Shown here: positions 11,232 through 63,512 of the stretch, in pieces
How positions within the stretch are numbered: position 1 is the first letter of the stretch
Layout: each line of letters begins with the position of its first letter
Virus record (IMG/VR): IMGVR_UViG_3300043252_000011
Coordinates: 1-64,000 of that record
Direction: 5' to 3' (one strand)
Source of the DNA: a virus
Lineage: Duplodnaviria > Caudoviricetes
DNA length: 64,000 nucleotides
The notes under the pieces: model-generated
What the model saw: only the letters and a program-made list of their open reading frames with translations
The model's database searches: none
What the model was told of the DNA's origin: nothing
Position numbers and translations under genes: made by a program

Positions 11232-11278
11232 TTCAGGTCCCTTGCATTTTGTATGACATTCGGGTAAGCATACCATCT

Positions 11279-26084: not shown

Positions 26085-26801
26085 TTACCCCGTCACTATA
26101 GCGGCATCAATTACCGCCCATGTATGCGGCCCCGGCATGCCGTCAGCCGTCAGCGAATGCTTCGCCTGAAACCATTTGACGGCTGCTTTAGTAAGATCGT
26201 CGTACTGTCCGTTCACAGCCAGCGGTGGCGCGTAGCCGAAGCTATTGAGCGCGATTTGCAAATTCTCAGTGGTGTACAGCCCGACTACGGCCGACGCTGA
26301 CGCAGGCGGCGCTACCTTGGCCACCGCCGCCTCGAATACCTGCCGCCACGCTTCGGTGCCGTCGTGACCGCCGGGACCGCCGCCCCAATCGTTGAAGATA
26401 TTACCGCCAAGGCGCATTTGCGGATGCCGCTGCCCGTTCGGGTCCGTAGGCAGCCCTTGGTCAGTGAAGCCGTGGATAAGGTCGCTGCCGGCCATCACAG
26501 TCGCAATCGCGGCATTCATCTTCGCTTGCAGCGCCGGATTGGCTTGAAGCTGCCTGATAGTCCGGGGGTACGCACCCCGATTGTACGGCCCGTAGAAACC
26601 ACTATGCAGCATTGAAAGCACGGTTTGCTTCCAACCGCGCGAGTTGCAATACAGAATGCGGTTAAGAAGGCTTTCGAGGCACGGAACCGGGTGCGCGCCG
26701 TCTTCCGTTATCATCATGGCGCATACTTGGTCATGCGTAGTCGGGTCTGCTATCTGAGCGGCGAACTGAGCGCGTTGCTGTGCGATGTACGGATTGGTCA
26801 T
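26085..26801 (-). CDS. endolysin with C-terminal peptidoglycan-binding domain
   Basis: LQIALNSFGY...TKAAVKWFQ..HSLTADGMPGPHTW; N-terminal E...ESLLNR hydrolase-like motif. Confidence 0.8.
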   Translation of the reverse strand: MTNPYIAQQRAQFAAQIADPTTHDQVCAMMITEDGAHPVPCLESLLNRILYCNSRGWKQTVLSMLHSGFYGPYNRGAYPRTIRQLQANPALQAKMNAAIATVMAGSDLIHGFTDQGLPTDPNGQRHPQMRLGGNIFNDWGGGPGGHDGTEAWRQVFEAAVAKVAPPASASAVVGLYTTENLQIALNSFGYAPPLAVNGQYDDLTKAAVKWFQAKHSLTADGMPGPHTWAVIDAAIVTG

Positions 26802-26805
26802 TCAA

Positions 26806-28065
26806 CTATCCCTGAATTTCCTGCAGCGTCATAGTGCCGCCTGCTTCAGATCCGTTCCCTGTGACACCTTGGCAGTATATCGCATAGGTTTGCGTGGTGA
26901 CCAATCCAGGCGCGTGGAGCATGACGAAAGAAACCGGAATCGTGTTCACGTTGATCGTTGAAGGCTGGCCGATTAAGGTCCCGTTATTGGCAAGCGAAAG
27001 TTTTACACCGTCATTTGTAGTAATGCTGGTATTCGACGCCGCGGCGTTTACCAGCACGAGGTTAACCGCGCTAGTCGGTGTGATTGGGCCGCTAACGGCA
27101 GTCGTGATATAAGCCGGCGTTGTACAGGTCGTGGAACCGCTTACGTTCACAAATGGAGCTGTCTGTACCACGTCTCCCGGCTTCGCGATACCAGGACCGA
27201 ATATTTGCAGACTCGTACACGAATTCCCCCAAGCGCCGGCAACAGTCTGCCCGCTTCCGAAACTGCAAAACCCGATTATCCGTACGGCGTCGGCAGCAAC
27301 GCCGGCTGTGGCGTACAAAGTACCGCCAGTGTTAGAAGACCCACCAATGGTTGTAGTGGTTGGTAGCGTATGTTCCCAAGCCGCACATGGAAAAATAGTC
27401 GTCTGGTTACTGCACGTCGCCACCGCCAGCTCAGGAACGCCCGCGTTGTACTCTAGAAAAATCCACACACGAAACGGCACGCCATTTGAAGTGCCGAGCG
27501 TCGCACCGTTGGGGATGGTGATGGACTGCGTAGCAGTGATGGAAGCAAACGTAATCGTGCCTGTCGTTCCTACAGTAGACCGGAACGGCACTATGACCGG
27601 ACTGCCGCTGCTAGGCGCAGCGCCGTTCGCTTGCGTCAACGTGATGGTAAGCGCGTTACCGGAAGCAACAGCCGACAAACCGAGATTGATCGGCATATCG
27701 TAGCCGCCTGTCGTACTGACAGCACTGCAATTAACTCCGGTGCCGGATACGTATTTCAGTGCTTGATTGACAGCCGTACAGTTCGGCAGCGGAAGATCGG
27801 TTACGGTAGTACCATTCAAACTGCCTTTCACCGTATTGGCAGCGCCGGGCGTAAAGCCGCTGTTGGCGATAGTGCCAAAGCCTGGATCGGCGGAAGGGCC
27901 GTTACTGACAAGCGGCTGTCCTGCCGTGCTGGGTACTGCGGCATTGAATCCGGTGTTGCCAGCGCCCTTGCCGATCGGCACGGAGTGGATTGCCGTCTGC
28001 TGCGCCAGCGCAGGCGCGCAAACCAGCAAAAACGCAAGAGCGGCAGCGGTACGGAGCATTTTCAT
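26806..28065 (-). CDS. tail fibre/appendage-like protein with Sec signal peptide
   Basis: MKMLRTAAALAFLLVCAPALA-Q; G/T/S-rich beta structure; PGDVVQ...MTLQEIQG C-terminus; ATGA overlap. Confidence 0.7.
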   Translation of the reverse strand: MKMLRTAAALAFLLVCAPALAQQTAIHSVPIGKGAGNTGFNAAVPSTAGQPLVSNGPSADPGFGTIANSGFTPGAANTVKGSLNGTTVTDLPLPNCTAVNQALKYVSGTGVNCSAVSTTGGYDMPINLGLSAVASGNALTITLTQANGAAPSSGSPVIVPFRSTVGTTGTITFASITATQSITIPNGATLGTSNGVPFRVWIFLEYNAGVPELAVATCSNQTTIFPCAAWEHTLPTTTTIGGSSNTGGTLYATAGVAADAVRIIGFCSFGSGQTVAGAWGNSCTSLQIFGPGIAKPGDVVQTAPFVNVSGSTTCTTPAYITTAVSGPITPTSAVNLVLVNAAASNTSITTNDGVKLSLANNGTLIGQPSTINVNTIPVSFVMLHAPGLVTTQTYAIYCQGVTGNGSEAGGTMTLQEIQG

Positions 28066-28673
28066 GGTATCAGTATCCAAGCGTTAAGATCGGGGGACGG
28101 ACGGAGACGCACACGCGCCAAGTAATCGGCGGTGGATTGCAAATTCCATGTTGCTTGCTGCATGATCGTAGCGCCGCCAACCGGCGAAACTAAAATTTCA
28201 TGGTTAGCAACACCCGTTGAAAAATCGGTGAGTACAATATCCTTTTGCGTAAGATACTGCGCTGCAATCGAGGGGAGCTGTACGGCTGTGTTAGCCGGCG
28301 CGGCGCGTTGTATGGCAGCAAGTGATACGCCGGGGTTAATAACGTTGTTCGCGTTCGGCAGCGATTGAAAAACCGAACCGGACGGCGACAAGAATGCTTG
28401 CCACAACGCAGGCGTCGCAACTTGATACTGCCCTGCTACCGGATTCCAGATGTACAGTGTGCCTTCCGCCGTCCATGACGGGATGGCGGGCTGAAACCAA
28501 AGCGTGCTCGCCTGATTTACAGTCGGCGCCGTCTGCCCGACCGAAAGAGCGAACATGCCAGCGCGGGCCAGCGCGACAACAATGTAATCCAACCCCGGCA
28601 TTCTTTCCGAACGCACGGCGCTGCCGACGAGCCGCAACAATCCGATGAAGTCTGTCGCTGGATTGTAGCTCAT
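28062..28673 (-). CDS. virion structural protein
   Basis: Within the structural operon; fibre-like motifs. Confidence 0.6.
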   Translation of the reverse strand: MSYNPATDFIGLLRLVGSAVRSERMPGLDYIVVALARAGMFALSVGQTAPTVNQASTLWFQPAIPSWTAEGTLYIWNPVAGQYQVATPALWQAFLSPSGSVFQSLPNANNVINPGVSLAAIQRAAPANTAVQLPSIAAQYLTQKDIVLTDFSTGVANHEILVSPVGGATIMQQATWNLQSTADYLARVRLRPSPDLNAWILIP

Positions 28674-29098
28674 ACGTTGTGCTCGTTTTCAGCGGTATAG
28701 AGTGGGTTAAGCGCGACTGCCACTGCCGCAGGGTTGGCAGGCCATACGCCGGCAGCCTTTGGCCCTAAAATGGACGGCTGCAATCCGTAGTTCGGATAGC
28801 CGCCCCACATCAAACAATAATCGCCGTTCGATCCTAGGTCGTTTGTCGGCTGCGCGGAACTGAACCAGTTCAACGCGGCTTGGTAAATCGCAGGCACGGC
28901 GAACAAGTAGTTGCCCCACGAACTCGTCTTGTCATTGGACCGCCTCGCGTACAGAAACCAAGTCTGCGTGTCTACGTACACATCGCCAACGACGCCGGCA
29001 GACGGCACAGGCTCGCCCGTACCACGCAGCACCGGACCGAATTGCTTCGTCTGCGCAAACACGCCGCCCTGAATTGTGCCATTGTCAAAGCCACTCAT
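28670..29098 (-). CDS. virion structural protein (tandem paralog of 29095-29724)
   Basis: MSGFD.GT.QGG.FAQTKQFG shared. Confidence 0.75.
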   Translation of the reverse strand: MSGFDNGTIQGGVFAQTKQFGPVLRGTGEPVPSAGVVGDVYVDTQTWFLYARRSNDKTSSWGNYLFAVPAIYQAALNWFSSAQPTNDLGSNGDYCLMWGGYPNYGLQPSILGPKAAGVWPANPAAVAVALNPLYTAENEHNV

Positions 29099-29724
29099 AC
29101 GGCATGCTCGTCTTCGGCAGAATATAATGGATTCAAAGCGACAGCCGCAACAATCGGCGCTGACTGCTCCGCACGCTGAATAACAGGCGTGTTTCCGAGC
29201 TGCGGCACCGGAATGGATAAGACATACTCGCTATCTTCAGCGGCGACGATGAGCTGCCATGAATTGCTGAACGCAATAGGTGCACCTTCGTCCAGTTCGC
29301 CAGCCGGCAGCGAATAGCCTGCATAGGCGGGGTCAAGCAATAAATCCGGGCCATCGCCGCTTTCAGGCCAGTAACCGTTGACGTTTGGACCACAGAAAGA
29401 CGGCTGGAGTCCGTAGTTATTGAAGCCAGCCCAAAGCAAGCAATAATCGCCGTTCGCTCCAAAATTGTTCGTCGGCAGCGACGAACTAAACCAATTCAAA
29501 CCGGATTGGTACTGCGCCGGAACGGCAAACAAATAGTGGCCCCACGGGTCGGTGCCTTCCGCGCTGCGTTTTTCGTACAAAAACCATGTCTGTACGTCAA
29601 TGTATAAATCACCGACAACGCCGGCCCCCGGCACGGGCGGCCCGGAACCGCGAAGGATCGAGCCAAACTGCTTTGTTTGGGCAAAAATGCCGCCTTGCGC
29701 AGTTCCTTGATCGAAACCGCTCAT
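29095..29724 (-). CDS. virion structural protein (tandem paralog of 28670-29098)
   Basis: Same N- and C-termini with an internal insertion. Confidence 0.75.
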   Translation of the reverse strand: MSGFDQGTAQGGIFAQTKQFGSILRGSGPPVPGAGVVGDLYIDVQTWFLYEKRSAEGTDPWGHYLFAVPAQYQSGLNWFSSSLPTNNFGANGDYCLLWAGFNNYGLQPSFCGPNVNGYWPESGDGPDLLLDPAYAGYSLPAGELDEGAPIAFSNSWQLIVAAEDSEYVLSIPVPQLGNTPVIQRAEQSAPIVAAVALNPLYSAEDEHAV

Positions 29725-30137
29725 GTGGATGCACCAACATCGCCTGTACGGGCAATCTGCATATCCATAACAACGCCCGTACTTTCGGCATTGTTGATAT
29801 TAACAATACGCAAGCGCGCCCAACCTTCACGATGAGCACGGCGGGACGTGGCAACGACGATATTCTGCCATTGATCGATTGGACGCGCGGAAGCATCCGG
29901 GTCGCCGCCATACATCTTCATTTCCATGATGACTTGGACTTCGGGCGCAATCGGCGACGGCGTGATGGTGCTCGACGCGGCGGAAACAAACGCCAACGAA
30001 GCGCGAGCTATATTAACAGAAATGGTATTGCCCTTACTTACCGGCAGCCACCCGGTCGCGCCGCCGACGAAATCGGCGTACACGGTATCGTTCTGATTGT
30101 TGATTCGCGTTGCGCTGCCGCCCGGCCGATAGAACAT
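29721..30137 (-). CDS. virion structural protein
   Basis: Beta-rich ORF in operon; ATGA overlap. Confidence 0.6.
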   Translation of the reverse strand: MFYRPGGSATRINNQNDTVYADFVGGATGWLPVSKGNTISVNIARASLAFVSAASSTITPSPIAPEVQVIMEMKMYGGDPDASARPIDQWQNIVVATSRRAHREGWARLRIVNINNAESTGVVMDMQIARTGDVGAST

Positions 30138-30149
30138 ATCCGTACAGCC

Positions 30150-30407
30150 CTACCGGCCTTTGTCGAAAGCCGTATTGCCGGAATATCGCGTACTGGAGCC
30201 GCCACCGTCGCCGTGATTGGACTTTGCCAGCCGGCGGTTGCCCATGCCGGTGTCCGCCACCGCGCCGGGATAGTGCTTCAACTGCCCTTCCGGCACACCA
30301 CCGCGCCCGGTGAATTTCGTAGCCGGCGGCCCCATTTCATTGGGTACGCAATCGTTATTGCCGGTCTTATTGAAGCCAGTTTTTAGACCGCGAAATCGAG
30401 TGCCCAT
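30150..30407 (-). CDS. Gly/basic low-complexity protein
   Basis: SD gagg before ATG 30407. Confidence 0.55.
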   Translation of the reverse strand: MGTRFRGLKTGFNKTGNNDCVPNEMGPPATKFTGRGGVPEGQLKHYPGAVADTGMGNRRLAKSNHGDGGGSSTRYSGNTAFDKGR

Positions 30408-30470
30408 GGTGCCTCTGTCCAGTTTGTATGACGCCTTCAAAGCATCATACCACTCGGTTCCCGGCTTTCA

Positions 30471-30498
30471 TAGGCCCCCGCCACGCGGCGGGGGCCTA
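30471..30498. terminator. 12-bp perfect hairpin (terminator or processing site)
   Basis: TAGGCCCCCGCC-ACGC-GGCGGGGGCCTA. Confidence 0.55.
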
Positions 30499-30547
30499 CG
30501 CTGGTAAGGCGTTAGCGGTCGCGGCCGTATTCGTCAGCACGAGACTG

Positions 30548-30928
30548 CTACGCTTGCGGGAAGGGCTGTTGCGGGCGCGTGCCCGCTTCGCGGAACGGCG
30601 TCGAATCGCGAGCCGGGACGGAGCTATCGAACAGATGCGGCCAGTTTATCTTGGCCGTGCCTTCCGGGTCGACGTCGCCCTCCTTGCGCATACGGGCGAT
30701 CGCTTCGTCCTTGGTCGCGGGTGCGACGTATAGCGGATTGCCTTCGTGCGCTTGGTCCTTTCGTTCGTCTACCAGCTCGGTATCGGGATGGTCGATGAGC
30801 TGCTTGACGCGACCGTGTGCCGATGCAGCGATATCCGCAAGGTTCTGATTCTTCAGCTTGCGGGCACGCTCTTCCACACCTTTCAGCACGTCAAACATGC
30901 TTTGGAGGGTATTCTTCAGATCAGCCAT
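30548..30928 (-). CDS. hypothetical protein
   Basis: Strong SD aaggag. Confidence 0.7.
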   Translation of the reverse strand: MADLKNTLQSMFDVLKGVEERARKLKNQNLADIAASAHGRVKQLIDHPDTELVDERKDQAHEGNPLYVAPATKDEAIARMRKEGDVDPEGTAKINWPHLFDSSVPARDSTPFREAGTRPQQPFPQA

Positions 30929-31088
30929 GATTCGCTCCTTTGGGTTGGCATGATGCCGAGTATATCAACTTTCGGGACGCAAAGAAGTTCATTTCTTCGC
31001 CTTCCGATTGCACAGCCGCGCTATCGTCATATGCACCTTGGCAAGCAGACGATGCCGGCGCGCAAGACTCAGGTACTTCGCACGGCGT

Positions 31089-31376
31089 TTAGTACTCCCG
31101 ATTAATGCCCCTGGCATTCGCGTCATTTATATAGCCCACGCCTTTGCGCAAATTCCGAATATCTTCTTCGACATTTTGTATGTCGTCTTCCGCACGTCGT
31201 AGCCGATCGGCCTCGACTGCAGACGTGATAAGCAAACCTTTGGTTTCCTTCACGTCGGTTTCAATACGCTGGATTTTGCCCGTCAGTTTTCCGGCGAAGA
31301 AACCACCGCCCCCGATTGTGAGTACGAGATTCAAGGCGGCAACCCCGGCTGCTACTGTCCCCGCGTCGATAATCAT
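31089..31376 (-). CDS. TM plus coiled-coil protein
   Basis: N-terminal hydrophobic helix, charged coiled coil. Confidence 0.65.
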   Translation of the reverse strand: MIIDAGTVAAGVAALNLVLTIGGGGFFAGKLTGKIQRIETDVKETKGLLITSAVEADRLRRAEDDIQNVEEDIRNLRKGVGYINDANARGINREY

Positions 31377-31482
31377 TGGGCGCCTTTTCTGAGCACGTTT
31401 TTGGTCAGAATTACCGCCGCGTAGACGAACAATGCGATCATAATAAGCGCCAAAACGGGACTGCCATACGGGTGCATAAGAA

Positions 31483-33396
31483 TCACGGAGTCGGTGTTAA
31501 GATAAGTTCTACATCAGCAAATGCACTGTTGCCTTCTGTTTGAGTAACTCTGAAGTATAAAGTGGGGAAACCGGCGACTGTATACGTAGCCAGGTTATTA
31601 TTATTAATAGTTAAATTTTGTGCATTATTAGCAGTGCCGTCCGATGCGGTTGACACCGTCACTGCCGATCCCGACGTGACGATCTGCGTGCCGCCGCCGC
31701 TAGTCGCGGTAAATACCCCAACCTGTGATGCCGTAAGCGATCCCGTCGCTCCAATAATGCGAATAGAGTTTATGAGGTAGCGCGAAGCCCAAGCTGGCAA
31801 ACTAACTGAGAGCGGAGTGTCCCCGACTGCATTGAAATTCACTCCTGCGGCGATGACAGCCAACGTCGTTGACGCCGGATTTCCGTTTAAGTAGTAACCG
31901 CCGCCGGCAGCCAAGTTGACCGTAGACGGTCCTTTATCTGCTCCCACAGGCGGCGTGGTACCTGAGAACGTACCAAAATAAGTGCCGCCGTCATTAAAAA
32001 CGCAAAACCACGGAGCTTGAACTACGGCATTTATTGCAGTTGTGTACTCACAGTCTCGTGTCGGCTCCGACGTACTGCTCCAATTAGCATCTGCGTAAAC
32101 CTGGAAACTACCGCGGCCAAATACCCATCCTGGGCCGCCAGAAACACAGGTTGCGCAGTACGCACCGCCGCCACCGAAGGAGACGAGATTATTGCCGTTG
32201 ACGATCGCGGTAGGCGCGGCCAGCGTGCCGTTGGCGTACATACCGGTGAAAGACGGGCTGTCAGTGCCGCCGTTAGGAGTTGCGATAGCGATATATCGCG
32301 TACCTTGGCCGTCCACATTTGCAGCGGCGAAAGCAACATCGCCGCCCAGTAAAGCCGATGAAATCGGAGCGGCATTTAGATTAACTGCGGCCGTACCACC
32401 GCTAAAAGTCCATCCGGTTGCGTAGGTCGCAACACAGTTCACGACGTTCGTAATTATTCCATAAAACAAACAAAGAGGCCGCAGCGTTCCGCCGTTGTAA
32501 GCCACAGAGCCAAAAGCAGAATAGCCTAGTGTGGTGTCGGCGCCGAAACGTGCGCAGCCGACCGGAGCGCTTGCATTTGCGATAAGATCGGCATCGCAAT
32601 CATCGTGCCAAGTTATAAAACCTTCCGCGTTTGCTGTTGCCGTCCCGTTAGGCATCAAATCAGATGCCATTCTAGTATTTACCGTAGTTGGCCTGGCAGT
32701 TTGAACAGGAAAAGTCGTAATCGTAGGACGCGGCAAGATTTGAAACTGATTGCCGCCAGTACCGAAAAACAATTGATCTAAAAAAGTCCCGGTCGGTATC
32801 GCAGAAGTTCCAGTGGGGTTGCCCAACGCCTGCCCCGCCTGTATTACTGGCGTGCCGCCCCCACCGCCCGACGTTGTCTGATCGTAAAAAATCGGTTCGA
32901 TCAAAAGCGTATTGACCGGGCCGCCCGGCGAAACTGCACACACGCGCGCTTGTGTGTACATCATATAGTAGTCAGCTTGCGGCGATGCTTGGATTACATT
33001 GCTGGGCGGCGTTGATGGGCACGCGGCGCTCCACGAAACCGTCGTACCGCCAGCTACAGTCATCGCAGCGGAAAGCGTTATGCCCGTTGTACCGTTGTAC
33101 GCAGCAACCGTTGTTCCCGACGTGATTCCCGCACCGGAAATCAGGCCGCCAACAATCGGTGGTATTGCTGGCGTCGCTGTCAGCGTCAAAGTCGTAGATG
33201 AGCCTGACGTGCTGCCGATGCCAGAACCTTGGGACGTGAAAATTGACGCGTTGCCCGCGATCATGCGGACCTTGATCGGGCCGTTACCTAAATCGGCGAC
33301 TGCATTTGCAGCGATCGGCAGTGTGATGGCGTTCTGTGCGTGCGCGTGAAGCGCCGTACAGAGCAGAAACGATAAGGCGAGTAGAAATCTGCGCAT
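31483..33396 (-). CDS. large fibre/appendage-like protein with Sec signal peptide
   Basis: MRRFLLALSFLLCTALHAHA-Q; N-domain paralogous to 35562-36107; multiple Cys. Confidence 0.7.
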   Translation of the reverse strand: MRRFLLALSFLLCTALHAHAQNAITLPIAANAVADLGNGPIKVRMIAGNASIFTSQGSGIGSTSGSSTTLTLTATPAIPPIVGGLISGAGITSGTTVAAYNGTTGITLSAAMTVAGGTTVSWSAACPSTPPSNVIQASPQADYYMMYTQARVCAVSPGGPVNTLLIEPIFYDQTTSGGGGGTPVIQAGQALGNPTGTSAIPTGTFLDQLFFGTGGNQFQILPRPTITTFPVQTARPTTVNTRMASDLMPNGTATANAEGFITWHDDCDADLIANASAPVGCARFGADTTLGYSAFGSVAYNGGTLRPLCLFYGIITNVVNCVATYATGWTFSGGTAAVNLNAAPISSALLGGDVAFAAANVDGQGTRYIAIATPNGGTDSPSFTGMYANGTLAAPTAIVNGNNLVSFGGGGAYCATCVSGGPGWVFGRGSFQVYADANWSSTSEPTRDCEYTTAINAVVQAPWFCVFNDGGTYFGTFSGTTPPVGADKGPSTVNLAAGGGYYLNGNPASTTLAVIAAGVNFNAVGDTPLSVSLPAWASRYLINSIRIIGATGSLTASQVGVFTATSGGGTQIVTSGSAVTVSTASDGTANNAQNLTINNNNLATYTVAGFPTLYFRVTQTEGNSAFADVELILTPTP

Positions 33397-34349
33397 CAGA
33401 AGTTCCACCCATTGGTCGCGCTGCGCATATTGGCGAGCATGGCTTGATAGGATGAGTTGAGATCAGCGGGCCAAATGCCGGCTTCGCAGACAAAACCCGC
33501 GATCATGCTCAGAGTGCCTGCCGAGCGGCCCATAAAATATTCAGGACCGCTTAATGCGGTGCCGCCGGAACTCGCTGTGTTTGTATTTGCGCTGCTATCC
33601 GACGCAAAAAGAGGCGCCGCGGCATTTACAACATTCAAAAGTGCGTGGGGCGCTCCATCGGCTACCGTGAGAGAAATTGTTGCCCCATTCGAGGTTTGAA
33701 CAGTGTTTGCAGAATTACCAAATCTAAGAAAAGTCAAATTGGTTCCATTGCCAAAAATGTTTTGCACAGTTGTATTGCTGCCTGTTCGCTCAGTAACCGC
33801 CGTCAGCGTATAGGGGGCAGATTGAGAAATATTTCCGGCAGTTTTCAGTACCGTCGCTGCATTTCCCGTCCCCGCCGCGCACGGCAAACCATTCTGCGCA
33901 CTGAGCGTCAGCCCCGGCATATTAGCGAGCGTCGCCTGAACGACGTGATTGCCGGTGCCGGTTTGATCGTAGAGTTTTGTGATGCTGCACGCGACGTGTG
34001 TGATGGTGCAGAACGTTGTCACGCTCACAACCGGGGCTCCGGTCGGACACACGACGGCAGCCATATTGGCAAAGCCGTTCGTACCGACGTTGAGCGTACA
34101 GGTCGCCAGCCCTGTTGCGGTGTCCACAAGATCGGCTAGCGGACTTTGCGCGGCGGCGTAGGCGGCATTGTAGGCGCGGCCGGCGGAGTAGAATGCGATG
34201 GCGCCACTGGCGATGTCGCCGGGGCCTTGGTATCCGGCGGCGGATTTGACGGTATTAAATACGCCTTCGCCGATCAATTGCGCTGATGCCTGCCACGCAC
34301 CAAAAAGCACAACGCATGCTGTCAGCCATGTCAGAGCGATTTTGCGCAT
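33396..34349 (-). CDS. signal-peptide protein with arabinofuranosidase B (GH54)/ConA-like domain
   Basis: GPGDI...RAY...FC...CSITKLYDQTGTGNHVVQA resembles the AbfB catalytic N-terminus; signal ends ASA-Q. Confidence 0.6.
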   Translation of the reverse strand: MRKIALTWLTACVVLFGAWQASAQLIGEGVFNTVKSAAGYQGPGDIASGAIAFYSAGRAYNAAYAAAQSPLADLVDTATGLATCTLNVGTNGFANMAAVVCPTGAPVVSVTTFCTITHVACSITKLYDQTGTGNHVVQATLANMPGLTLSAQNGLPCAAGTGNAATVLKTAGNISQSAPYTLTAVTERTGSNTTVQNIFGNGTNLTFLRFGNSANTVQTSNGATISLTVADGAPHALLNVVNAAAPLFASDSSANTNTASSGGTALSGPEYFMGRSAGTLSMIAGFVCEAGIWPADLNSSYQAMLANMRSATNGWNF

Positions 34350-34351
34350 GG

Positions 34352-35230
34352 TTACTTATAGTCGATGTTGATCTGCACGCCGGTCGCAGCATTCGTATTG
34401 TCGTTATCAGCAACCGCGCCTGTGTAGCAAAAACTGATTCCGTTTGCGAACAACTTACCGCCGGGATAGTTCAAATGCAAACCCGGACTGATCACATTCG
34501 ACTGTACGGGGAGGTTGTTCACGACGCCAGTTGCCGAACTACAAGTCGGCGCGCTGGCACTGTCGTAAAAACGAAAATCACCGAGTGTCGTTGTCGTGTT
34601 GATAATCGTAAGATCATAAACAGTCCCCGCACTGGCTTTAACGTTCGTTGAATTATTCGACGCAGCAGATCCTACGTGATACGGCGTCGCGCCACCCGAC
34701 GCGCTCGCCGAAGGTGCTACAAGCCACGGCACTGTATTCGGGGTATTACCCGGCTGTACGGTCCATGTACCGGATTGCGTTGCAGCTACCGTTGCCAGCG
34801 GCGTAAGCGCAGTAATCTGCGCTGCAGTGAGCACTACAGGAATCGAAGCCGCCGCAAGTTGCTGACCAAGCGTGTACGGCCAAAACGTGCCAGTTACTTT
34901 CAGATTACCATTTACGTCCGTTTGGAACGCGACCATCTGACCAGTAGTCAACGTCGGCGGCGATGATAAGTACTCGGCACCCGCTGCAGTCCCCGCGCTA
35001 GGAAAGACAGCGCCAAAATTTGAAGATGTTCCGCCGCCGCCCCCGCCCCCGCCGCCGTCACACAGCTTCCCCGTCGTATCCATCGTAAGAATGCCGTACG
35101 TGCCAGCAACGTACGATACGGGCGGCGTACCACACGCCGACACGATCAGGGCTTGCAATTGCTGTTGAGCGCTCACGGGCACGCACAGAGCACCAAGCGC
35201 CAGCAAAATGAAAAATAGAAATTTCTTCAT
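34352..35230 (-). CDS. structural-like protein with Sec signal peptide
   Basis: MKKFLFFILLALGALCVPVSA-Q; C-terminal VKASAGTVY...FYD...G..FANGI beta-sandwich. Confidence 0.7.
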   Translation of the reverse strand: MKKFLFFILLALGALCVPVSAQQQLQALIVSACGTPPVSYVAGTYGILTMDTTGKLCDGGGGGGGGGTSSNFGAVFPSAGTAAGAEYLSSPPTLTTGQMVAFQTDVNGNLKVTGTFWPYTLGQQLAAASIPVVLTAAQITALTPLATVAATQSGTWTVQPGNTPNTVPWLVAPSASASGGATPYHVGSAASNNSTNVKASAGTVYDLTIINTTTTLGDFRFYDSASAPTCSSATGVVNNLPVQSNVISPGLHLNYPGGKLFANGISFCYTGAVADNDNTNAATGVQINIDYK

Positions 35231-35538
35231 CGTGCGCGCCCCGTATCGATCTTTTCGATCACGCCGGTAAACGCCGTTGCGCCGACAACAACCATGCTGT
35301 AGCGCCCCGCCGGCAACTGCATTTCTGTGTAGCCGGCTGCAGCCGCCACCGGCATGGCAGGCACGTACGTTGCTCCGTCAGGCAGCAACCTTTGCAATTG
35401 GTAGCTGGTAAAGCCACCAGCCGCTATCGTAAGCCCGTACCTGCCTGCGTCCAGCTCAAAGTCGGTTGCTGGCGTGGCGGCAAGATTGACCCAGGACTGA
35501 TAGCTACGCGGTATGGTCTTTATAGGATTGGCAACCAT
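35227..35538 (-). CDS. small virion structural protein
   Basis: Beta-rich; in operon. Confidence 0.6.
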   Translation of the reverse strand: MVANPIKTIPRSYQSWVNLAATPATDFELDAGRYGLTIAAGGFTSYQLQRLLPDGATYVPAMPVAAAAGYTEMQLPAGRYSMVVVGATAFTGVIEKIDTGRAR

Positions 35539-35561
35539 CGGATGCGCCCCTCATTGGGTGA

Positions 35562-36107
35562 TTAGTGCGCTCCGATGGGGTATTGAGCAATCAGCCCGCC
35601 AGGACCGCGATTGCCGTACGCGCAAACGCGAGCCTGCGTGTACATCGGAAGATCGGAACCGACTGCGGCTTGAACCAGCGCGAGCGGCGCCGTAGGCGGC
35701 GCGGCCGGACACGCTTGACCCCACGCGAGCGGGGTGGACGCCGCGACGGTCATGGCTGCCGAAAGGGTGATGCCAGTCGTACCGTTGAACGCCGTGACGG
35801 TCGTGCCCGACGTAATGCCGGTGCCGGAAATGATGCACCCTACACACGGCGGATCGGCGGCAGCGGTCGCCGTCAGCGTGAGCGTGGTGGACGAACCGGA
35901 CGTGCTGCCGATGCCAGATCCTTGGGACGTGAACAGCCCCAAGCTGCCCTGAAGCGTACGAATTTCAGTCGGGCCGTTGCCCAAATCGACGACGGTATTC
36001 GAGACTACGACTGTCGGGACCTGTACAACAGTCTGCGCAAGCGCGACAGTCGGCGCCATCAAAAGCAGTGCAGCCAACGCAGCGCGGATATTGGCGATAA
36101 GTTTCAT
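35562..36107 (-). CDS. structural-like protein with Sec signal peptide
   Basis: MKLIANIRAALAALLLMAPTVALA-Q; SD gaagga. Confidence 0.7.
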   Translation of the reverse strand: MKLIANIRAALAALLLMAPTVALAQTVVQVPTVVVSNTVVDLGNGPTEIRTLQGSLGLFTSQGSGIGSTSGSSTTLTLTATAAADPPCVGCIISGTGITSGTTVTAFNGTTGITLSAAMTVAASTPLAWGQACPAAPPTAPLALVQAAVGSDLPMYTQARVCAYGNRGPGGLIAQYPIGAH

Positions 36108-36147: not shown

Positions 36148-36885
36148 CTAGTCTTCCACGAACGCAGCGCCGCCGCGATAGTGACGGCTGCTATTGAACT
36201 GCACGAGTGCGACAAAACCGGCGGAAGTCGGATCATTGCCGATTTGATTGCCCGAACTGAGCAAACGCAGCGGCAGCGTTGACGTGGTTTGGAAAGTCGC
36301 CGGATCGAGCGACACGCCGGAAATGCCGAAGCGCGTTGCTTGCTGTGCGGCATTTGCTTTCACGTCGATGCCGGCGCCAAGAATCAGGTTGAACGCGGTA
36401 GCCGGCACAGTCGGCATCGTGATTTCCATTTCCAAGCTCGGGCTCGTATCGACGGCAGCCCAGCACTCGGTCGAAGCTGGCGCGTACTGAAAGCCGTTCT
36501 TTGCCTGATAAAGCGTGATCGGGCCGAAGCCGACAACCACGCCGGCAATGATGCTGGTCGTGTCGCCGGGCACCCAGCGGGTGATGTTCGGGTCCATGGA
36601 TTGGTTGCCAAGCAACGTACCGCCGCCGTTGCCGATGACGACTGATGGCGTTGCCGGGGTGCCGATGTTGTACGGCATGTCGGCCGCGCCGGGCGTGCCG
36701 ATCGAGCCGGAAGCCCACACGACGATATCGCCCCGGAAAATCGCTGCGGCGTTGGCGGCCGGAATGTGGAAATAACGGACAGTCGCTTGCGCTTGGGGGC
36801 CGCCGTCGCGAGGCGTCACAGGTAGGAGTCCCGAATAGTGTTTAAAGCCACCCCCAAGCGTACCGGCATTAATGATGTTCACCAT
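36148..36885 (-). CDS. capsid decoration / minor capsid protein
   Basis: YFHIPA...AIFRGDIV...AGVVVG...LPLRLL pattern of capsid-associated decoration proteins; SD aggag. Confidence 0.65.
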   Translation of the reverse strand: MVNIINAGTLGGGFKHYSGLLPVTPRDGGPQAQATVRYFHIPAANAAAIFRGDIVVWASGSIGTPGAADMPYNIGTPATPSVVIGNGGGTLLGNQSMDPNITRWVPGDTTSIIAGVVVGFGPITLYQAKNGFQYAPASTECWAAVDTSPSLEMEITMPTVPATAFNLILGAGIDVKANAAQQATRFGISGVSLDPATFQTTSTLPLRLLSSGNQIGNDPTSAGFVALVQFNSSRHYRGGAAFVED

Positions 36886-36977
36886 CGAGAAATCTCCTGC
36901 GTTGCGTCATACAATTTCATTGACACACTACACCGCTAAAGCGTATGACACCAACTCTTAAATAGGCGGGGGTTTCC

Positions 36978-37535
36978 GTGAAACCGTGTAACACTTGTGG
37001 CGTCGTGAAAAATTTAGAGCAATTCCATACGCACTCAACACGCGACGGGCGCCGTAATAAATGCGCCGAATGTGAAAATAAACTCAGGCGCGAACGCCGG
37101 CAGAACAATCTAGCAAAAGAACGCGCCCGCGATAGAAAACGCTACCGTACAAATCCCGTACGGCGGCTGAACAGCCAAAGATTACGCGCAGCTAATTTAG
37201 ACCGATACAAAGCCAATGACGTACGCCGACACGCTGCCGATCCGCGTAAAAAAATGTTGCGCGCCGCACGAAAGCGCGCTAAAGAGTACGGTAGAGAGTG
37301 TACAATAACCTTAGCAGATATTATTGTGCCCCCGCTGTGTCCGTTGCTAGGCGTCCCCATAACAGTTGGGACCGCTAAGGTCCACAACAACTCACCTACA
37401 CTTGATCGCAAGGACAGCACAAAAGGATACGTACCCGGCAACGTGTGGGTTATAAGTTGGCGCGCTAATCGTATGAAATCTGACAGCACACTTGAAGAAT
37501 TAAAACTTTTTGTAAAAAATTGGCCAGTCACATGA
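36978..37535 (+). CDS. HNH-like homing endonuclease
   Basis: CxxC N-terminus; CPLLG...SPTLDRKDSTKGYVPGNVWVISWRANRMK. Confidence 0.8.
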   Translation: MKPCNTCGVVKNLEQFHTHSTRDGRRNKCAECENKLRRERRQNNLAKERARDRKRYRTNPVRRLNSQRLRAANLDRYKANDVRRHAADPRKKMLRAARKRAKEYGRECTITLADIIVPPLCPLLGVPITVGTAKVHNNSPTLDRKDSTKGYVPGNVWVISWRANRMKSDSTLEELKLFVKNWPVT

Positions 37536-37687
37536 CGCACCCGTGGGAAAAGCCACCAGAGCCGGACTACAACGAAATACCAGAATTCCTAAAACGCGAA
37601 TTGCCGCCTAATCACGCAAATAATCTTCAAGAGAAAGCCCAAGATTGGCTTCCGCCTTGGGGACCCACGAATTCGTCTCATTCCTGA
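37532..37687 (+). CDS. 51-aa micro-ORF with FtsZ C-terminal-like peptide
   Basis: Manual translation MTHPWEKPPEPDYNEIPEFLKRE...; ATGA overlap with the HNH stop. Confidence 0.45.
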   Translation: MTHPWEKPPEPDYNEIPEFLKRELPPNHANNLQEKAQDWLPPWGPTNSSHS

Positions 37688-37924: not shown

Positions 37925-38320
37925 CTACGGCGAGGCCCCAACGCCTTGCACGGCACCACGTTGCGCGATCGTACCGGCAACATCACGCGCCGTACGAGCA
38001 CCGTTATCCGGCATCGCACCAAGAATATCGGAGAACTTGGCAGGGCTGCCGGCCGCGCGTTCCTGCATCCGATTTTCGCCATCCGCATACGCAGCCCACT
38101 GTGCAAACCTATGATGAGGGGCTGAGTCGCCAGGCTGGATAAAAATTACGTCACATTCTTCCGTACATCTACAGAGCGGAGTTCCGTTGCCAATAACGAT
38201 CATGACGTCGATAAGACGTGCGTTGTGCACTTTAGTTATTACAGCCGCGAAAGGTATATTGTCCGAACACCTATAGCGGAACCAAACAGTACGCCCAGCC
38301 TTTAATTCTATTTCAGTCAT
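37925..38320 (-). CDS. hypothetical protein, apparently chimeric C-terminus
   Basis: GRTVWF...PFAAVITKV N-domain; ends AQRGAVQG like the upstream gene. Confidence 0.6.
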   Translation of the reverse strand: MTEIELKAGRTVWFRYRCSDNIPFAAVITKVHNARLIDVMIVIGNGTPLCRCTEECDVIFIQPGDSAPHHRFAQWAAYADGENRMQERAAGSPAKFSDILGAMPDNGARTARDVAGTIAQRGAVQGVGASP

Positions 38321-60394: not shown

Positions 60395-60972
60395 ACCGTC
60401 TCCCTCGTGAAGGTTACTGTCGGATCAAGTTTTGCAATCATCCACAAAAGCGGCGCACAGCCAGGTTGCGGGTCCATGACGGTCGATGACCAGACATGAT
60501 CGCGAATCCATTTGCCGGGTTGCTGAATGTTCGTGCAGCCCCAAATGTACGACGATGGATGGCCCCACGCTTCCGAGCCGACGCCATTGAACAGCAGCAT
60601 ATAGTAGAGCTGCTTCTCGAGCCGCCAATCGCTGATGCTGCCCCAGCCCTCGACATTGATAGCATCCACACCACCGTCAATGAAAGCATTTGGGCCAATG
60701 AAAGGACCGCGCCCCACGGGCACTTCCGTGGTTCTGAGCGTCAGCGTTTGGCCGTTGCCTAAATAGGTTTTGAAATTCGCATCGCTCTCGCGGCGATGAA
60801 TGCAAGCGAGCATTTGCCATGGCACACGGGTCTTGGATTCGAGTACCTGATATGTGACTTTGTTGTTGATCGCAAACTGCGCCTCCTCCGTGAATGCCTG
60901 CACGCGGCCGGCATTGATGGTCATTGCGTCCCACCATTTCGCATAGCGCGGCCAGATGTCGGAGTAGCGCAT
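60391..60972 (-). CDS. lysozyme-family endolysin (COG5526-like)
   Basis: VPW..IH.RES..F..YLGNG...VP.GRGPF...SSYIW.CTN...GKWIRDHVW...D.QPGC..LL. Confidence 0.8.
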   Translation of the reverse strand: MRYSDIWPRYAKWWDAMTINAGRVQAFTEEAQFAINNKVTYQVLESKTRVPWQMLACIHRRESDANFKTYLGNGQTLTLRTTEVPVGRGPFIGPNAFIDGGVDAINVEGWGSISDWRLEKQLYYMLLFNGVGSEAWGHPSSYIWGCTNIQQPGKWIRDHVWSSTVMDPQPGCAPLLWMIAKLDPTVTFTRETV

Positions 60973-63512
60973 TAGTTGATCCCATAAACGAGAATTGAGC
61001 CGGACGTGATATTGCCGCTGTCCATAAGAACCTGGAAGCCATCAACGACGCCTGCGGTGTTCCAGTAGCCCGACATTTGCCCGGTAAAAGGAGGCGCGGA
61101 GCCCGACACATAATTCGCAAATCCACCGATCATGCAAATTGCATTGGCGGACGGATTAGTAATCGTGATCCAACCGCTCATACCGGGAGCCGAGTTGGCC
61201 AGTGAAAATCCATTTGCATCGAGCGGGTAACTTAATGGAATATAGCCTGTCGGGCCGACAGAACTCCCGCTTGATGAATTGATCCAACCGCCAAAGCTGC
61301 TGAGATAACCGCTCGATTTGTAAGCACCGCCGGAATGGATTTGCAGTTCTAGGATTTTTTCATTCGTTGCCGGAACGATGGCCTGAAATACCAGCAGATA
61401 GGACGTGTAGGTATTGTTGATCGGGCAAGTGCCGGATGTCGGCGAGGCATTGTTGATCGATGTCGAATTGCTCGCGGTGATCGTGCATAGGTAGGTCATC
61501 GCGCCGGTGCCGTTGGCACTCGCCCACGTTCCATCACCGCGCCAGAAGGTTCCTGCGCTGGCGCTGGTGCCGGAATTGAGATTGCTGACCGGAAGATTGC
61601 CGGTGACGCCGGTGCTGAGCGGCAAGCCGGTGGCATTTGTCAAGACTGCCGCGGATGGCGTGCCAAGCGCCGGCGTCGTCAATGTCGGCGACCCGCTGAA
61701 AACAAGCGAACCCGATCCGGTTGTGCTTTCCGCCGCCGCTGCGCGGAAGATGCGCCATGCCGCGCCGTCGTAGCCGATGAGCAAATCGAGTGCGCCGCCG
61801 CCGCCGGTAACCGTCGTATTCGGCAGCTTGCACGCGCCATCCCCGCAATTCGCCGCGAGGCCGTCGATGATGTGGGAGATTTGGCCGGCGGTCGGGGAGG
61901 CGGGGAGGCCGGCGTAGGTGTGGGCGGTGATGATCGGATCAGTGATCGTCGGCGCTTGCTTGCCAACAAGAATGCCGGTGCCGCTTATACCTTCGCCGTC
62001 GCTGTCTTGATAGCCAAGAGAAAAATTACATCCGCCGCTTCCCGGAAATATGCTGGCGCACGCCGTGGCGTTCGGCAAATTAAGAAAGCCGGGGCCTTGA
62101 CCGTTGAATTGCGAGCCGGTGCCTGTACCTGAAACGATCCATCCCGTGACATCAACGCTGGAATCAACCGCCTGTGCAAAGTTGCCCGACCAAGAGACCG
62201 AACTGCCGATTGTTGTAGTGCCGCCTGCCGCTAGATTGGCTCCGGCACTCAGGTTCCAATGATTGATGAAAGTAGTATTAGATAAAAGCGTTTCATTGGT
62301 GGCATTGACCGTAACGCCTTTGCCGGTTGCGGAAACATGGGAGCCTGAATTTCCCCAAGCGCCCCAGACGATTCCGCCATAATCGCAGATGGCTATCTGT
62401 CGGCATTGAATGCCTGGCCCGGCGCCATTGACAGCAGTGATCTCCAAATTGTTGACGCCGGCTTGGCCGCCGTCTTGGAGCAAAATACCCGTCGCGCCGC
62501 TTGGCACTTGGAGCACGACGTTCGACGGCGTGATAGAATTACCGTTGATCGAGAGAAGCTGGCCTGAGCTGCCGCCGCTATTTCCTTGATATGTGCACAG
62601 CGCGCCAGCAGTCGCGGTTGCGTAAGAACCACCCGACCCGTCGAGAAGCTGAATCGGTCCCGCCGCTCCTAAGAATGTCGCAATCTGTTTTACAAACGAA
62701 CACGCCGTCGCCAGCGTGCAGGCATTCCCCGAACTGAGACAATTGCCGCTGCCGGTTGCGCTCGGCGCGGCGTAGAGCGGGAGACCGCCGACGGGCGCAA
62801 CTGCGCCCCACACCGCAACGTCTTTTAGGAGCGATCCGGTGGAGTTATTCCAAATTGCTACATCGCCGATTGTGGATGAGGACGGCCCGACGATATTGCC
62901 AGTCCCAGGCCCGGCAGGAAGGCATGTTGGCGTCAATCCATTCGCACCGAGATTAAGAAACGCCCCAGCACAAGCACTCGGCTGCGGCAGTGGTCCCATC
63001 GTGTTGCCGGGTTGCGAAAACAGCCCGCGCCCGGTCAGGTCGTTGGTCTTGTCCCAAAGCTCACGCTCGACCGTGGTGGTTTCGGTCATGCGCTGGTTGA
63101 GATCGCGCGCCGCAACGCCGCGGCCTTCAGTGAATTGCGTCAACTGCCGCGGCCGTTCGGCGCCGACGATCTGCACTGTGCCGGTCTGGACCGCGTTGAA
63201 CGTCAGCACCGCATTGGTGATCGGCCGCGGGATGGTCGACAGCGGGCCGGTGGTTGAAGACAGCGACCAGCCGAAATTTGGGTCGGTCGAGAGATAGCGG
63301 ACGCCGTTCACCCAAACTTGCAGCCACGCATCGATGTCCGACCCACTGGCAAACAACGCCATATTCACAGCACAACTACAATTATTAGCGCTCAAACTAT
63401 ATGACGTTCGTCGCTCAGCATCAGGTAGCGCCGGCACAGCAGGAGGCGCCTGAGCAGCAGCAATACGCAGGCTCAACAACAGAAGTAAAATGATTGCCAT
63501 TGCTCGGCGCAT
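60972..63512 (-). CDS. tail fibre/spike with Sec signal peptide and T7 gp17-like N-terminal anchor
   Basis: [21 protein letters not shown]; RTSY...V.VNG...LTF...F..G...A.DLN...E anchor pattern; many Cys; [18 protein letters not shown] fibre repeat. Confidence 0.72.

Follow-up and report, generated by a model that had tools for sequence, protein, structure and literature searches.

The window, a 64,000-nucleotide stretch (positions 1 to 64,000) of the 98-kb virus record IMGVR_UViG_3300043252_000011, encodes six proteins with predicted Sec leaders. We consider it probable, short of assured, that these are receptor-binding appendages (fibres, tailspikes and lectin-like subunits) made as Sec pre-proteins and joining the virion around lysis; export, cleavage, disulfides, pyroglutamate and joining are all inferred. 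A proposal that could equally well stand or fall is that in a large, uncultured set of soil podophages the entire host-recognition apparatus (adaptor-bearing fibres, tailspikes and lectin-like subunits) is made in the periplasm, Sec-exported, disulfide-bonded and pyroglutamate-capped, and is fitted to fibreless particles from the cytoplasm only between holin triggering and outer-membrane rupture. What is implied is an exported-fibre route for tailed phages of which no description was found, and which would break with the wholly cytoplasmic assembly of textbooks.

The record probably consists of two phage genomes fused by the assembler at a common 394-bp repeat, so that the preliminary description was right to speak of a second phage beside phage A. 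Both are probably podophages infecting Bradyrhizobium-like soil bacteria, and relatives of these proteins with a named source come from Bradyrhizobium. The hallmarks of tailed icosahedral phages (terminase, portal and endolysin) are present, together with a P22-type gp10-like connector protein in phage A. A gene that resembles those of outer-membrane proteins and likewise encodes a leader occurs in each phage (21603-22409 and 59055-59852).

The six leaders lie on the minus strand at the starts that had been claimed for them, each composed of a basic n-region and a hydrophobic core and ending in a small-x-small site before Gln: MKMLRTAAALAFLLVCAPALA then QQ (419-aa protein, ALA site, start 28065), ...TALHAHA then QN (637 aa, 33396), ...GAWQASA then QL (317 aa, 34349), ...LCVPVSA then QQQ (292 aa, 35230), ...APTVALA then QT (181 aa, 36107) and ...SLRIAAA then QA (846 aa, 63512). 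All six meet the sequence criteria for Sec and signal peptidase I (basic n-region, an uncharged h-region some 10-15 residues long, a small residue at both -3 and -1, a cleavage point 18-30 residues from the start) and start with ATG; a Shine-Dalgarno-like stretch is present in four, and in the remaining two the start touches or lies within the end of the preceding gene. These calls rest on an n/h/c plus AxA heuristic and on conservation in relatives, without a trained predictor. Scanned over every ORF of the record, the heuristic flags the six leader genes; it flags neither the capsid protein (16126-17058), the gp10-like protein (13011-14489) and the terminase (23555-25129) nor a 1313-aa internal protein and a 245-aa protein (36148-36885), in agreement with the earlier claim that core proteins, the 245-aa 'decoration' protein among them, are leaderless. 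Greedy calling gave about 75 genes of 50 aa or more in phage A; against this background, the chance of five leader genes falling within some 14-gene run is about 0.007. Homologs lacking the leaders would have refuted the reading put forward in the preliminary description; leaders are in fact kept in hundreds of relatives and in 47 of 48 viral contigs, their sequence drifting while the leader itself persists. Export by the Tat route is ruled out by Lys-Lys variants among the leaders. The mature parts contain 30-35% G+S+T and only 2-3% K+R, and their characterization as fibre or lectin-like is borne out by folds, distal domains and the domain architecture of relatives.

In the second phage, the 846-aa protein (60972..63512, minus strand; AAA then Q) is read from its gene position and AF2 fold as a T7-gp17-type tail fibre, predicted to be exported. 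The gene order runs MCP, tail tubular A and B, internal proteins, HNH and then the 846-aa gene, which meets the positional test for a gp17-type fibre (after the tail tubular A and B genes and those for the internal core); gp17 of T7 likewise follows internal core genes. For residues 31-160 of the AF2 model, the 15 best structural matches are without exception N-terminal adaptors of podovirus fibres (Z 6.6-9.4, alignments of 103-139 residues, rmsd 4-8.7 Å), T7 gp17 among them (7ey9_b, Z 8.6; 7boz_b, Z 8.1); the superposition covers residues ~3-120 of T7 gp17 and other podovirus adaptors (PDB 7ey9, 7boz, 9efk, 8i4m; PF03906) at Z 8-9.4. The model is of medium confidence (pLDDT 77) and, by the tool's warning, Z values of 8-9 can be common; PF03906 (Phage_T7_tail) was not recovered, no Pfam family matching the N-terminal 200 residues of the protein and four relatives at E up to 10. 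Unlike T7 gp17, the protein adds a 20-residue predicted cleavable leader, after which the adaptor fold starts immediately, and a conserved 'QAPPxVPALPD' linker; its family also differs in having two or four conserved cysteines in the adaptor region and no PF03906 match.

The family comprises 659 cluster representatives (HMMER), and no relative was found among 50,697 sequenced phages. The leader is followed by Gln at +1 in about 180 of 195 relatives and by Ala in about 13, one sequence being cut short; at the cleavage site in 187 of them, position -1 is Ala (89%) or Gly (10%) and position -3 is Ala, Ser or Val (95%). Across hundreds of these proteins the adaptor domain is the best-conserved part, and as with T7 gp17 a single adaptor N-terminus is joined to many distal domains, including pectate-lyase, SGNH and Peptidase_S74 chaperone domains. 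As modelled, the 846-aa protein would be a T7-gp17-type fibre; its docking to the tail is inferred, and the evidence leans towards virion attachment.

In phage A, the 637-aa protein (31483..33396, minus strand; AHA then Q) is a predicted exported tailspike or fibre with a conserved N-terminal domain of about 150 aa and an exchangeable C-terminus. Its 74 relatives (408-1115 aa) share the N-terminus, with leader and +1 Gln in 70 of 70, and have C-termini that include PF12708, PF13884, PF13472 and PF26209; identity to L002 and L004 is 68-92% in the N-terminal and 12-50% in the C-terminal part. By joining a conserved N-terminus to unrelated C-termini, Peptidase_S74 and pectate-lyase among them, the family meets the criterion for an exchangeable receptor-binding module. 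This build, with enzyme-type C-termini in relatives, is shared with P22 gp9, and the gp10-like connector of phage A is likewise of P22 type; gp9 differs in being leaderless and folding in the cytoplasm, and no similarity to its head-binding domain was found in searches that included Pfam and PHROG. The 181-aa protein (35562..36107, minus strand; ALA then Q), also predicted to be exported, is a paralog of the 637-aa N-terminal domain (61% identity to residues 30-169, E 3e-28), the A-x-A-Q site and two Cys being invariant in an alignment.

The 419-aa protein (26806..28065, minus strand; ALA then QQ), whose gene adjoins the endolysin gene on its upstream side, is a predicted exported fibre: its residues 127-419 share 34% identity (E 5e-36) with the distal region of P0185, a protein from Bradyrhizobium sp. 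48 that itself has a leader and an N-terminus of gp17-like type, and the C-terminal ~140 aa vary among close relatives. The 317-aa protein (33396..34349, minus strand; ASA then Q) is a predicted exported beta-sandwich, lectin-like or GH54-like, with 189 relatives on phage-sized contigs; most of the 29 read have a leader, followed by Gln in about half of those, and at the nucleotide level the gene is 80-88% identical to positions 73694-74665, in the second phage. The best fold match of its AF2 model (pLDDT 86.6) is the similarly sized catalytic domain of a GH54 alpha-L-arabinofuranosidase (PDB 1wd3, chain 1wd3_A; E 2e-9, TMq 0.61), with further matches to pentraxins, LamG-type domains and the tailspike of cyanopodophage Pan3. 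A weak PF09206 (GH54) hit, seen also in some relatives, is a further resemblance, though its 19.4 bits lie below the curated cut-off of 25; identity to the GH54 domain is only 17%, lectin-type folds match too, and the resemblance is one of fold and score, with the catalytic Glu/Asp pair unmapped. The 292-aa protein (34352..35230, minus strand; VSA then QQQ), predicted to be exported, is conserved over its N-terminal ~80 aa and variable towards the C-terminus (58-70% identity to orthologs over the first 80 residues, mostly 17-32% beyond); the look-alikes found for it in the ESM Atlas are exclusively viral.

None of the five leader proteins of phage A yielded a virion-anchor fold, and for the 317-, 292- and 181-aa proteins this absence would suit a different account, namely that the proteins are exported but never enter the particle, cutting or masking surface polysaccharide or receptors of the infected cell so as to block superinfection, ease release and stop progeny sticking to debris. 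The leader combined with enzyme-type domains in relatives (pectate lyase, SGNH esterase), the GH54-like fold of the 317-aa protein and a polytopic membrane protein, weakly matching O-antigen ligase, in some related clusters point the same way. We nevertheless think it unlikely, because a free enzyme has no need of a tail-adaptor domain, yet this domain is the most conserved part and matches solved fibre adaptors. The second phage, in which no alternative, leaderless fibre-like ORF of at least 200 aa was found, would moreover be left without a receptor-binding protein, and a satellite-like element (a small integrase-plus-primase element in a Bradyrhizobium chromosome) pairs such a fibre with an adjoining nozzle gene, 47% identical to that of the second phage. 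Action on the envelope may hold for the smaller cluster members, compatibly with the main explanation; attachment to the virion is somewhat favoured over action on the infected cell in the case of the 846-, 637- and 419-aa proteins.

Cysteines make up 1.75% of the mature leader proteins versus 0.48% of leaderless structural proteins (Fisher p 7e-11), and their mature number is even in 11 of 12 leader-bearing proteins and in 176/192, 50/53 and 107/113 members of three family sets, which are related and hence not independent events. This pattern, read from sequence, is compatible with disulfide bonding outside the cytoplasm; enrichment and even counts both fit the several-cysteine, disulfide-bonded character proposed earlier, the disulfides themselves being inferred. 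No record-encoded DsbA, thioredoxin or plant-type glutaminyl cyclase was found. It is conceivable that the hydrophobic segment is not used for export at all, the fibres folding and attaching in the cytoplasm, as those of T7 and P22 do, with the segment removed, buried or serving as a transient tether to the inner membrane. To our knowledge, tailed-phage assembly is cytoplasmic in all known cases; large, fast-folding trimeric fibres are awkward substrates for Sec; and the same adaptor exists in a single leaderless variant, L065, so the domain can work without a leader. L065, however, has lost precisely the adaptor-domain cysteines, retaining none there and an odd total of 9. Oxidised proteins outside the cytoplasm typically have even counts. 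The segment also shows all the features of a cleaved Sec leader, with A/S/V at -3 and A/G at -1 in nearly all 195 relatives, and codons 2-44 of the 637-aa gene contain no in-frame start codon, so that a leaderless isoform by internal start is not possible. Retention in the cytoplasm is on these grounds distinctly improbable.

The first gene of the late unit of phage A encodes the 245-aa leaderless protein (36148..36885, minus strand), which has no Pfam or PHROG match and whose counterparts in the related contigs L002, L004 and L009 show 75-96% identity; its position is taken by a Bbp16 cement-protein gene in L021, a distant relative. Two terminator-like hairpins precede it, one at 37259..37279 (minus strand; 7-bp stem with 6 G-C pairs, then a T run) in the 720-nt gap upstream of the unit. 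Such a hairpin before the unit, the outer-membrane-protein-like leader gene in both phages (21603-22409, 59055-59852) and the well-known occurrence of exported phage proteins beside tail genes might indicate lysogenic-conversion genes (morons), comparable with lambda lom and bor or T5 llp and expressed from a prophage to alter the host surface. We hold this to be barely credible: no integrase was found in the record, the G+C content of the cluster is like that of the rest of the genome, and promoter-like sites do not exceed their frequency in shuffled sequence. Starts and stops of the cluster genes abut or overlap leaderless late genes and the endolysin gene (26085..26801, minus strand, leaderless; PG_binding_1 E 3.7e-15 and endolysin PHROGs), the 419-aa gene ending 4 nt before the endolysin start, and the proteins are large, modular and of tailspike type, not small exclusion factors. 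The criteria for a moron (own promoter/terminator, deviating composition, temperate phage) are thus not met. Lambda Lom and Bor, T5 Llp, phi80 Cor and SAR or signal-peptide endolysins are exported and encoded near tail or lysis genes. They resemble the present proteins, if these are exported as predicted, in being phage proteins that leave by a host route before lysis, and differ as small exclusion factors or lysis enzymes from modular, adaptor-bearing receptor-binding proteins.

Under the preferred reading, that of receptor-binding proteins made as Sec pre-proteins, capsid, connector, nozzle and internal proteins would assemble in the cytoplasm late in infection, while the fibre proteins would leave via SecYEG and be cut by signal peptidase I after A-x-A, exposing Gln, which may cyclise to pyroglutamate. 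In the periplasm, the host Dsb system would pair the cysteines and the fibres would oligomerise; they could there, where enzyme-bearing, also modify the infected cell's own surface sugars. Opening of the inner membrane by holin would mix fibreless particles with periplasmic fibres within the still-confined envelope, and the fibres would dock by their conserved N-terminal domains before endolysin finishes lysis. Receptor-binding proteins are the last parts joined to podovirus tails: P22 gp9 tailspike is added last to tailless heads, spontaneously and also in vitro, and adding free fibre in vitro can complete T7 particles that lack fibres. P22 heads were reportedly completed in vitro with free tailspike by Israel et al. 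in 1967. Because these proteins go on last and such completion works in vitro, docking at lysis is plausible, and the spontaneity of final spike addition makes it feasible; post-holin joining has to be fast and efficient, for which no precedent was found. No paper on exported tail fibres of tailed phages was found in the literature, nor any cultured phage with these proteins, so that there is no proteome in which their presence in the virion could be checked.

Filamentous phages offer a parallel to the inferred pathway in g3p and g8p, virion proteins with Sec leaders that are disulfide-bonded in the periplasm; their virions are assembled at the membrane and extruded, unlike the tailed icosahedral particle considered here. 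Gln at +1 is shared with the Q-rule of Bacteroidetes, a phylum in which cleavage by signal peptidase I exposes Gln genome-wide (PMC5837995) and in which Porphyromonas gingivalis phage proteins of unknown function with Q-rule leaders have been read as surface modifiers (PMC10367356). The rule presupposes a Bacteroidota host with a high Q-value across its genome and a glutaminyl cyclase in the inner membrane. Here, by contrast, the named relatives are from Bradyrhizobium, not Bacteroidota, and the proteins are the phage's own fibres. The +1 Gln could just reflect a host-wide preference; it provides a test case for the Q-rule (pyroglutamate protection) beyond Bacteroidota.

If the reading is true, assembly of tailed phages would be split over two compartments, lysis timing would become part of morphogenesis, and host Dsb and Sec functions would be phage host factors, for a receptor-binding family of at least 659 sequence clusters. 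Such fibres would then need periplasmic or oxidising expression for folding, and host-range engineering of rhizobial phages would have to retain the leader. For annotators, leader-bearing ORFs should not be dismissed as non-structural.

Several leaderless or small proteins are encoded among the leader genes. The 103-aa leaderless protein (35227..35538, minus strand), whose start overlaps the upstream gene by 4 nt, is 67-100% identical in close relatives and has no Pfam or PHROG family match. A 95-aa protein (31089..31376, minus strand) that has a membrane helix at its N-terminus and a charged, helical tail, and for which family searches gave no match, is 88-99% identical in L004, L009 and L010. 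Four small leaderless proteins of 138, 209, 142 and 203 aa (28062..30137, minus strand), without a family match in Pfam or PHROG, are candidate cytoplasmic tail or adaptor parts; they are 79-100% identical in close relatives, and the 209- and 142-aa proteins are paralogs with 64% identity.

The 98,428-bp virus record, whose first 64 kb form the window, has its bases 1–394 repeated identically at 52077–52470 and its bases 1–127 repeated at the record end (98302–98428), a 127-bp end overlap being a common assembler word length. Because of these two recurrences, the record most likely consists of two circular phage genomes joined at the shared repeat, phage A (1–52076; ~52.1 kb) and phage B (52077–98301; ~46.2 kb), and the 98 kb probably represent an assembly chimera, not a single phage. 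Its G+C content is 57%, and tRNA and Rfam scans of the window gave no matches. Phage A carries an ejection-protein-like gene (10587–11276), a P22-gp10-like connector protein (13011–14489; phrog_578, E 3e-37), a capsid protein (16126–17058; PF25209), a terminase (23555–25129) and a 1313-residue internal protein with a transglycosylase segment (38317–42258). Phage B displays T7 gene order, running from the capsid protein (77522–78481) through four leader-bearing genes (73694–76342), tail tubular A (72908–73648), tail tubular B (70216–72771), internal proteins including an SLT protein (64177–70216) and an HNH gene to the gene of an 846-residue fibre (60972–63512). For the terminase the closest match reaches 31% identity, and for the nozzle protein a Microcystis phage counterpart reaches 30%; judged by such comparisons, neither phage is close to any cultured phage.

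Classical Sec-type leaders, each ending in a small-x-Ala site followed by Gln, are found on five phage A proteins of 419, 637, 317, 292 and 181 residues (26806–36107) and on the 846-residue protein of phage B (start 63512), at the six positions proposed in the preliminary description. They were assigned with an n/h/c-region plus AxA heuristic applied to all ORFs, without a trained predictor, and are supported by conservation in relatives. The same scan left head, connector, terminase and internal proteins unflagged, in agreement with the earlier claim that core proteins lack leaders, and the mature parts are indeed rich in Gly, Ser and Thr (30–35% together), with few charged residues. That the second phage repeats the pattern holds for the leaders, which there mark five genes of fibre type, namely the 846-residue one and the group of four located between those of the capsid protein and tail tubular A, but only partly for the Gln, several phage B sites being followed by Asp, Thr or Ala. 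Tat export was ruled out, with Lys-Lys replacing Arg-Arg in many relatives and the leaders being short and strongly hydrophobic, as were lipoproteins, the +1 residue never being Cys, and, for the 637-residue protein, a leaderless isoform made by internal initiation. The phage A cluster lies in a late operon and no tyrosine integrase was found in the record; that it represents a set of prophage conversion genes is very hard to credit. Separately, both phages encode a leader-bearing protein of 265–268 residues (21603–22409, plus strand; 59055–59852, minus strand; 74% DNA identity) without a Pfam match, whose leader ends in ALA or AMA before ADLPLKAP or ADMAVKAV and whose C-terminus reads YEFGL or YDFGL; the pair looks like an alphaproteobacterial outer-membrane β-barrel, a Lom-like moron.

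Relatives without leaders would have refuted the idea of export; instead, leaders are retained across the 317-, 637- and 846-residue families. The 317-residue protein has 189 relatives, on contigs mostly of 40–65 kb; the majority of the 29 that were read possess a leader, followed by Gln in about half of these, and runs of 3–7 consecutive leader-bearing genes surround such relatives in 17 viral contigs. For the N-terminal domain of the 637-residue protein (74 relatives), a leader with A-x-A and then Q is present in 70/70 full-length sequences. The corresponding domain of the 846-residue protein recovers 659 cluster representatives at E ≤0.001 (430 at 1e-30); among 195 sequences, the +1 residue is Gln in ~180 and Ala in ~13, 99% have Ala or Gly at −1, and 47 of the 48 viral contigs encoding this domain include the leader. 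Between close relatives of the 317-residue protein, residues 1–40 are 28–40% identical, as against 78–88% for the following 40, a comparison in which the sequence of the predicted leader drifts while its character is kept. In light of this retention, a leader that is not used for export appears improbable.

Among the phage-B-like contigs (L073–L109) with enough sequence upstream of the gp11-like gene, 25 of 29 have 1–4 ORFs with leader-like N-termini separating the capsid gene from that of tail tubular A; the scan covered at most 5 kb on that side, and its heuristic is certain to include some false calls. Gene content in this region differs from contig to contig; in T7-like phages the same position is normally empty. 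In some relatives the leader-bearing cluster also includes a polytopic membrane protein of 325–363 residues (related contigs L005, 8332–9309; L013, 8534–9532; L021, 8105–9196), for which the L005 copy gives a weak, below-cut-off match to O-antigen ligase (Wzy_C, E 8e-4); its role could lie in altering surface sugars or in glycosylating the exported fibres, which are rich in Ser and Thr.

An AlphaFold2 model of the first 220 residues of the 846-residue protein (pLDDT 77) was compared with the PDB using VIA-align, and its best 15 matches are podovirus tail-fibre N-terminal adaptors, all from solved tail complexes; these comprise LME-1 (Z 9.4), P-SCSP1u (Z 8.7) and T7 gp17 (Z 8.1–8.6), together with adaptors of Carin-1, HRP29, PhiM1, Kp7 and Kp9. 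Model residues 31–160 superpose on fibre-chain residues ~3–120, and since the adaptor fold aligns only from residue 31 onward, the model places the leader, together with a short conserved linker, as an add-on ahead of the tail-attachment domain. The Pfam T7-tail model does not match the 846-residue protein, and likeness to gp17 is therefore taken to mean that it works like gp17, not that it belongs to the same family. Within the gp17-like family the adaptor includes the stretch PALPDTERRTSY, and its relatives span 481–1293 residues, with C-termini that include pectate-lyase, β-helix, NosD and Peptidase_S74 chaperone domains; those of the 637-residue family include PF12708, PF13884 and an SGNH esterase. 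The combination of one N-terminus with many C-terminal domains in both families is a hallmark of receptor-binding proteins. Among close relatives, neighbouring genes are mostly 75–100% identical and the C-termini of the 637- and 292-residue proteins only ~12–50%, with the last ~140 residues of the 419-residue protein at 20–55%; the distal 290 residues of the latter match (34% identity, E 5e-36) those of a Bradyrhizobium sp. 48 protein with a gp17-like N-terminus.

The 181-residue protein is a free-standing copy of the N-terminal domain of the 637-residue one. The 317-residue protein is modelled as a β-sandwich (pLDDT 86.6) whose nearest fold is the catalytic domain of a GH54 arabinofuranosidase, followed by trans-sialidase lectin-like domains, pentraxins, LamG-type domains and a cyanopodophage tailspike; on this basis, whether it is a lectin or an enzyme remains undecided. 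Pfam and PHROGs searches with the five phage A proteins returned a weak PF09206 match and otherwise none, and profiles of the 317-residue family and of the 181/637 N-terminal domain found nothing meaningful among PDB sequences. The fibre or lectin-like character initially attributed to the leader-bearing proteins is thus borne out by an adaptor fold, exchangeable C-termini and a lectin-like fold. Phage B contains no leaderless ORF of at least 200 residues with fibre-like composition.

Cysteines make up 1.75% of the mature leader-bearing parts versus 0.48% of leaderless structural proteins (p 7e-11), and their number is even in 11 of 12 mature leader-bearing proteins, in 176/192 gp17-like fibres (p 3e-35), in 50/53 members of the 637-residue family (p 6e-12) and in 107/113 of the 317-residue family (p 5e-25). 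The sequences are related and the parity p-values overstate their independence; despite this kinship, the bias to even counts is strong. Counted for the adaptor domain alone, 151 members contain four cysteines, 38 contain two and 3 contain three. In the related contig L065 (IMGVR_UViG_3300045282_000095), a gene at 5995–8586, directly following that of the nozzle, carries this adaptor in leaderless form, with the N-terminus MPSPVAVPALPD; this fibre lacks Cys in its first 340 residues and has an odd total of nine. Single as it is, the leaderless case does show that the predicted leader and the adaptor cysteines occur together or are missing together. Three genes upstream of this fibre, before the gp11-like gene, L065 also has a 123-residue ORF with a twin-arginine-type leader (MDRRGFLTGLL...).

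In the absence of experimental data, we consider it somewhat probable that the receptor-binding proteins are exported through Sec and joined at lysis to particles built in the cytoplasm. Sequence analysis alone shows that leaders are present and conserved, that the mature parts have receptor-binding character, that the cysteines follow the pattern described and that the genes sit in a late operon; Sec export, cleavage, disulfides and attachment after holin action are inferred from these features. The fibres would pass through Sec and lose their leader, the exposed N-terminal Gln possibly becoming pyroglutamate, and would acquire disulfides from host Dsb proteins, as neither DsbA nor thioredoxin was found encoded in the record. 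A plant-type glutaminyl cyclase was not found there either. Since the endolysin has no leader, the inner membrane is expected to be opened by a holin-type mechanism; this would unite the two compartments and allow the fibres to attach. In P22 and T7, tailspikes or fibres are added last and can be added in vitro, which removes the main mechanical objection.

Alternatively, the proteins might be exported and yet have the infected cell as their only target. For the three small ones (317, 292 and 181 residues) such a role is quite possible, and it is compatible with attachment of the others to virions; as an account of the whole set we hold it unlikely, and a chromosomal locus bears on the question. 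One fibre relative resides within the 8.8-Mb chromosome of Bradyrhizobium sp. 215_C5_N1_1 (CP197229.1, ~3.58–3.60 Mb), in a small integrative element (locus L023, 3191–15099) that encodes an integrase, an HTH protein, a Toprim/AAA_25 primase-helicase, a few small ORFs and a leader-bearing gp17-like fibre adjoining a gp12-like nozzle 47% identical to that of phage B. Judging by gene content, the element resembles a phage satellite equipped with its own tail tip for re-tooling a helper's tail, and, with fibre and nozzle as all that it carries of a tail, it argues that the fibre works on the virion. A separate 11.9-kb Logan contig, present in four samples, has this gene set in unchanged order.

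Four relatives are named by their sources as Bradyrhizobium proteins, and family members occur in Bradyrhizobium sp. 215_C5_N1_1, sp. 48 and sp. 18BD. A pattern scan of species genomes yielded a single distant locus, in a MAG of 70% G+C, around which a 401-genome phylum sample produced no match. Our literature search turned up no account of tail fibres exported through Sec, a silence explained by the absence of any match to the 317-residue protein, the 637-residue protein or the 846-residue N-terminus among 50,697 phage records (megablast, tblastn). Closest in the literature come the Bacteroidetes Q-rule (PMC5837995) and a comment that unknown proteins obeying it are encoded by Porphyromonas phages (PMC10367356). 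What this window contributes is the same strategy on two different podovirus backbones that have a near-identical module in common, along with the cysteine parity statistics, the leaderless contrast and the satellite-like element.

Two further features of phage A lie near the fibre genes. Upstream of the gene for a 245-residue protein lies a gap of 720 nt (36886–37607) in which no ORF is convincing and whose minus strand has a pair of terminator-like hairpins (37279–37259 and 37164–37144); the gap measures ~660–690 nt in two close relatives and 115 nt in a third, and may contain an insertion or a regulatory RNA. Between the exported-fibre genes, two adjacent leaderless paralogs without a family match (28670–29098 and 29095–29724) are 64% identical over 134 residues and share the same last 20 residues.
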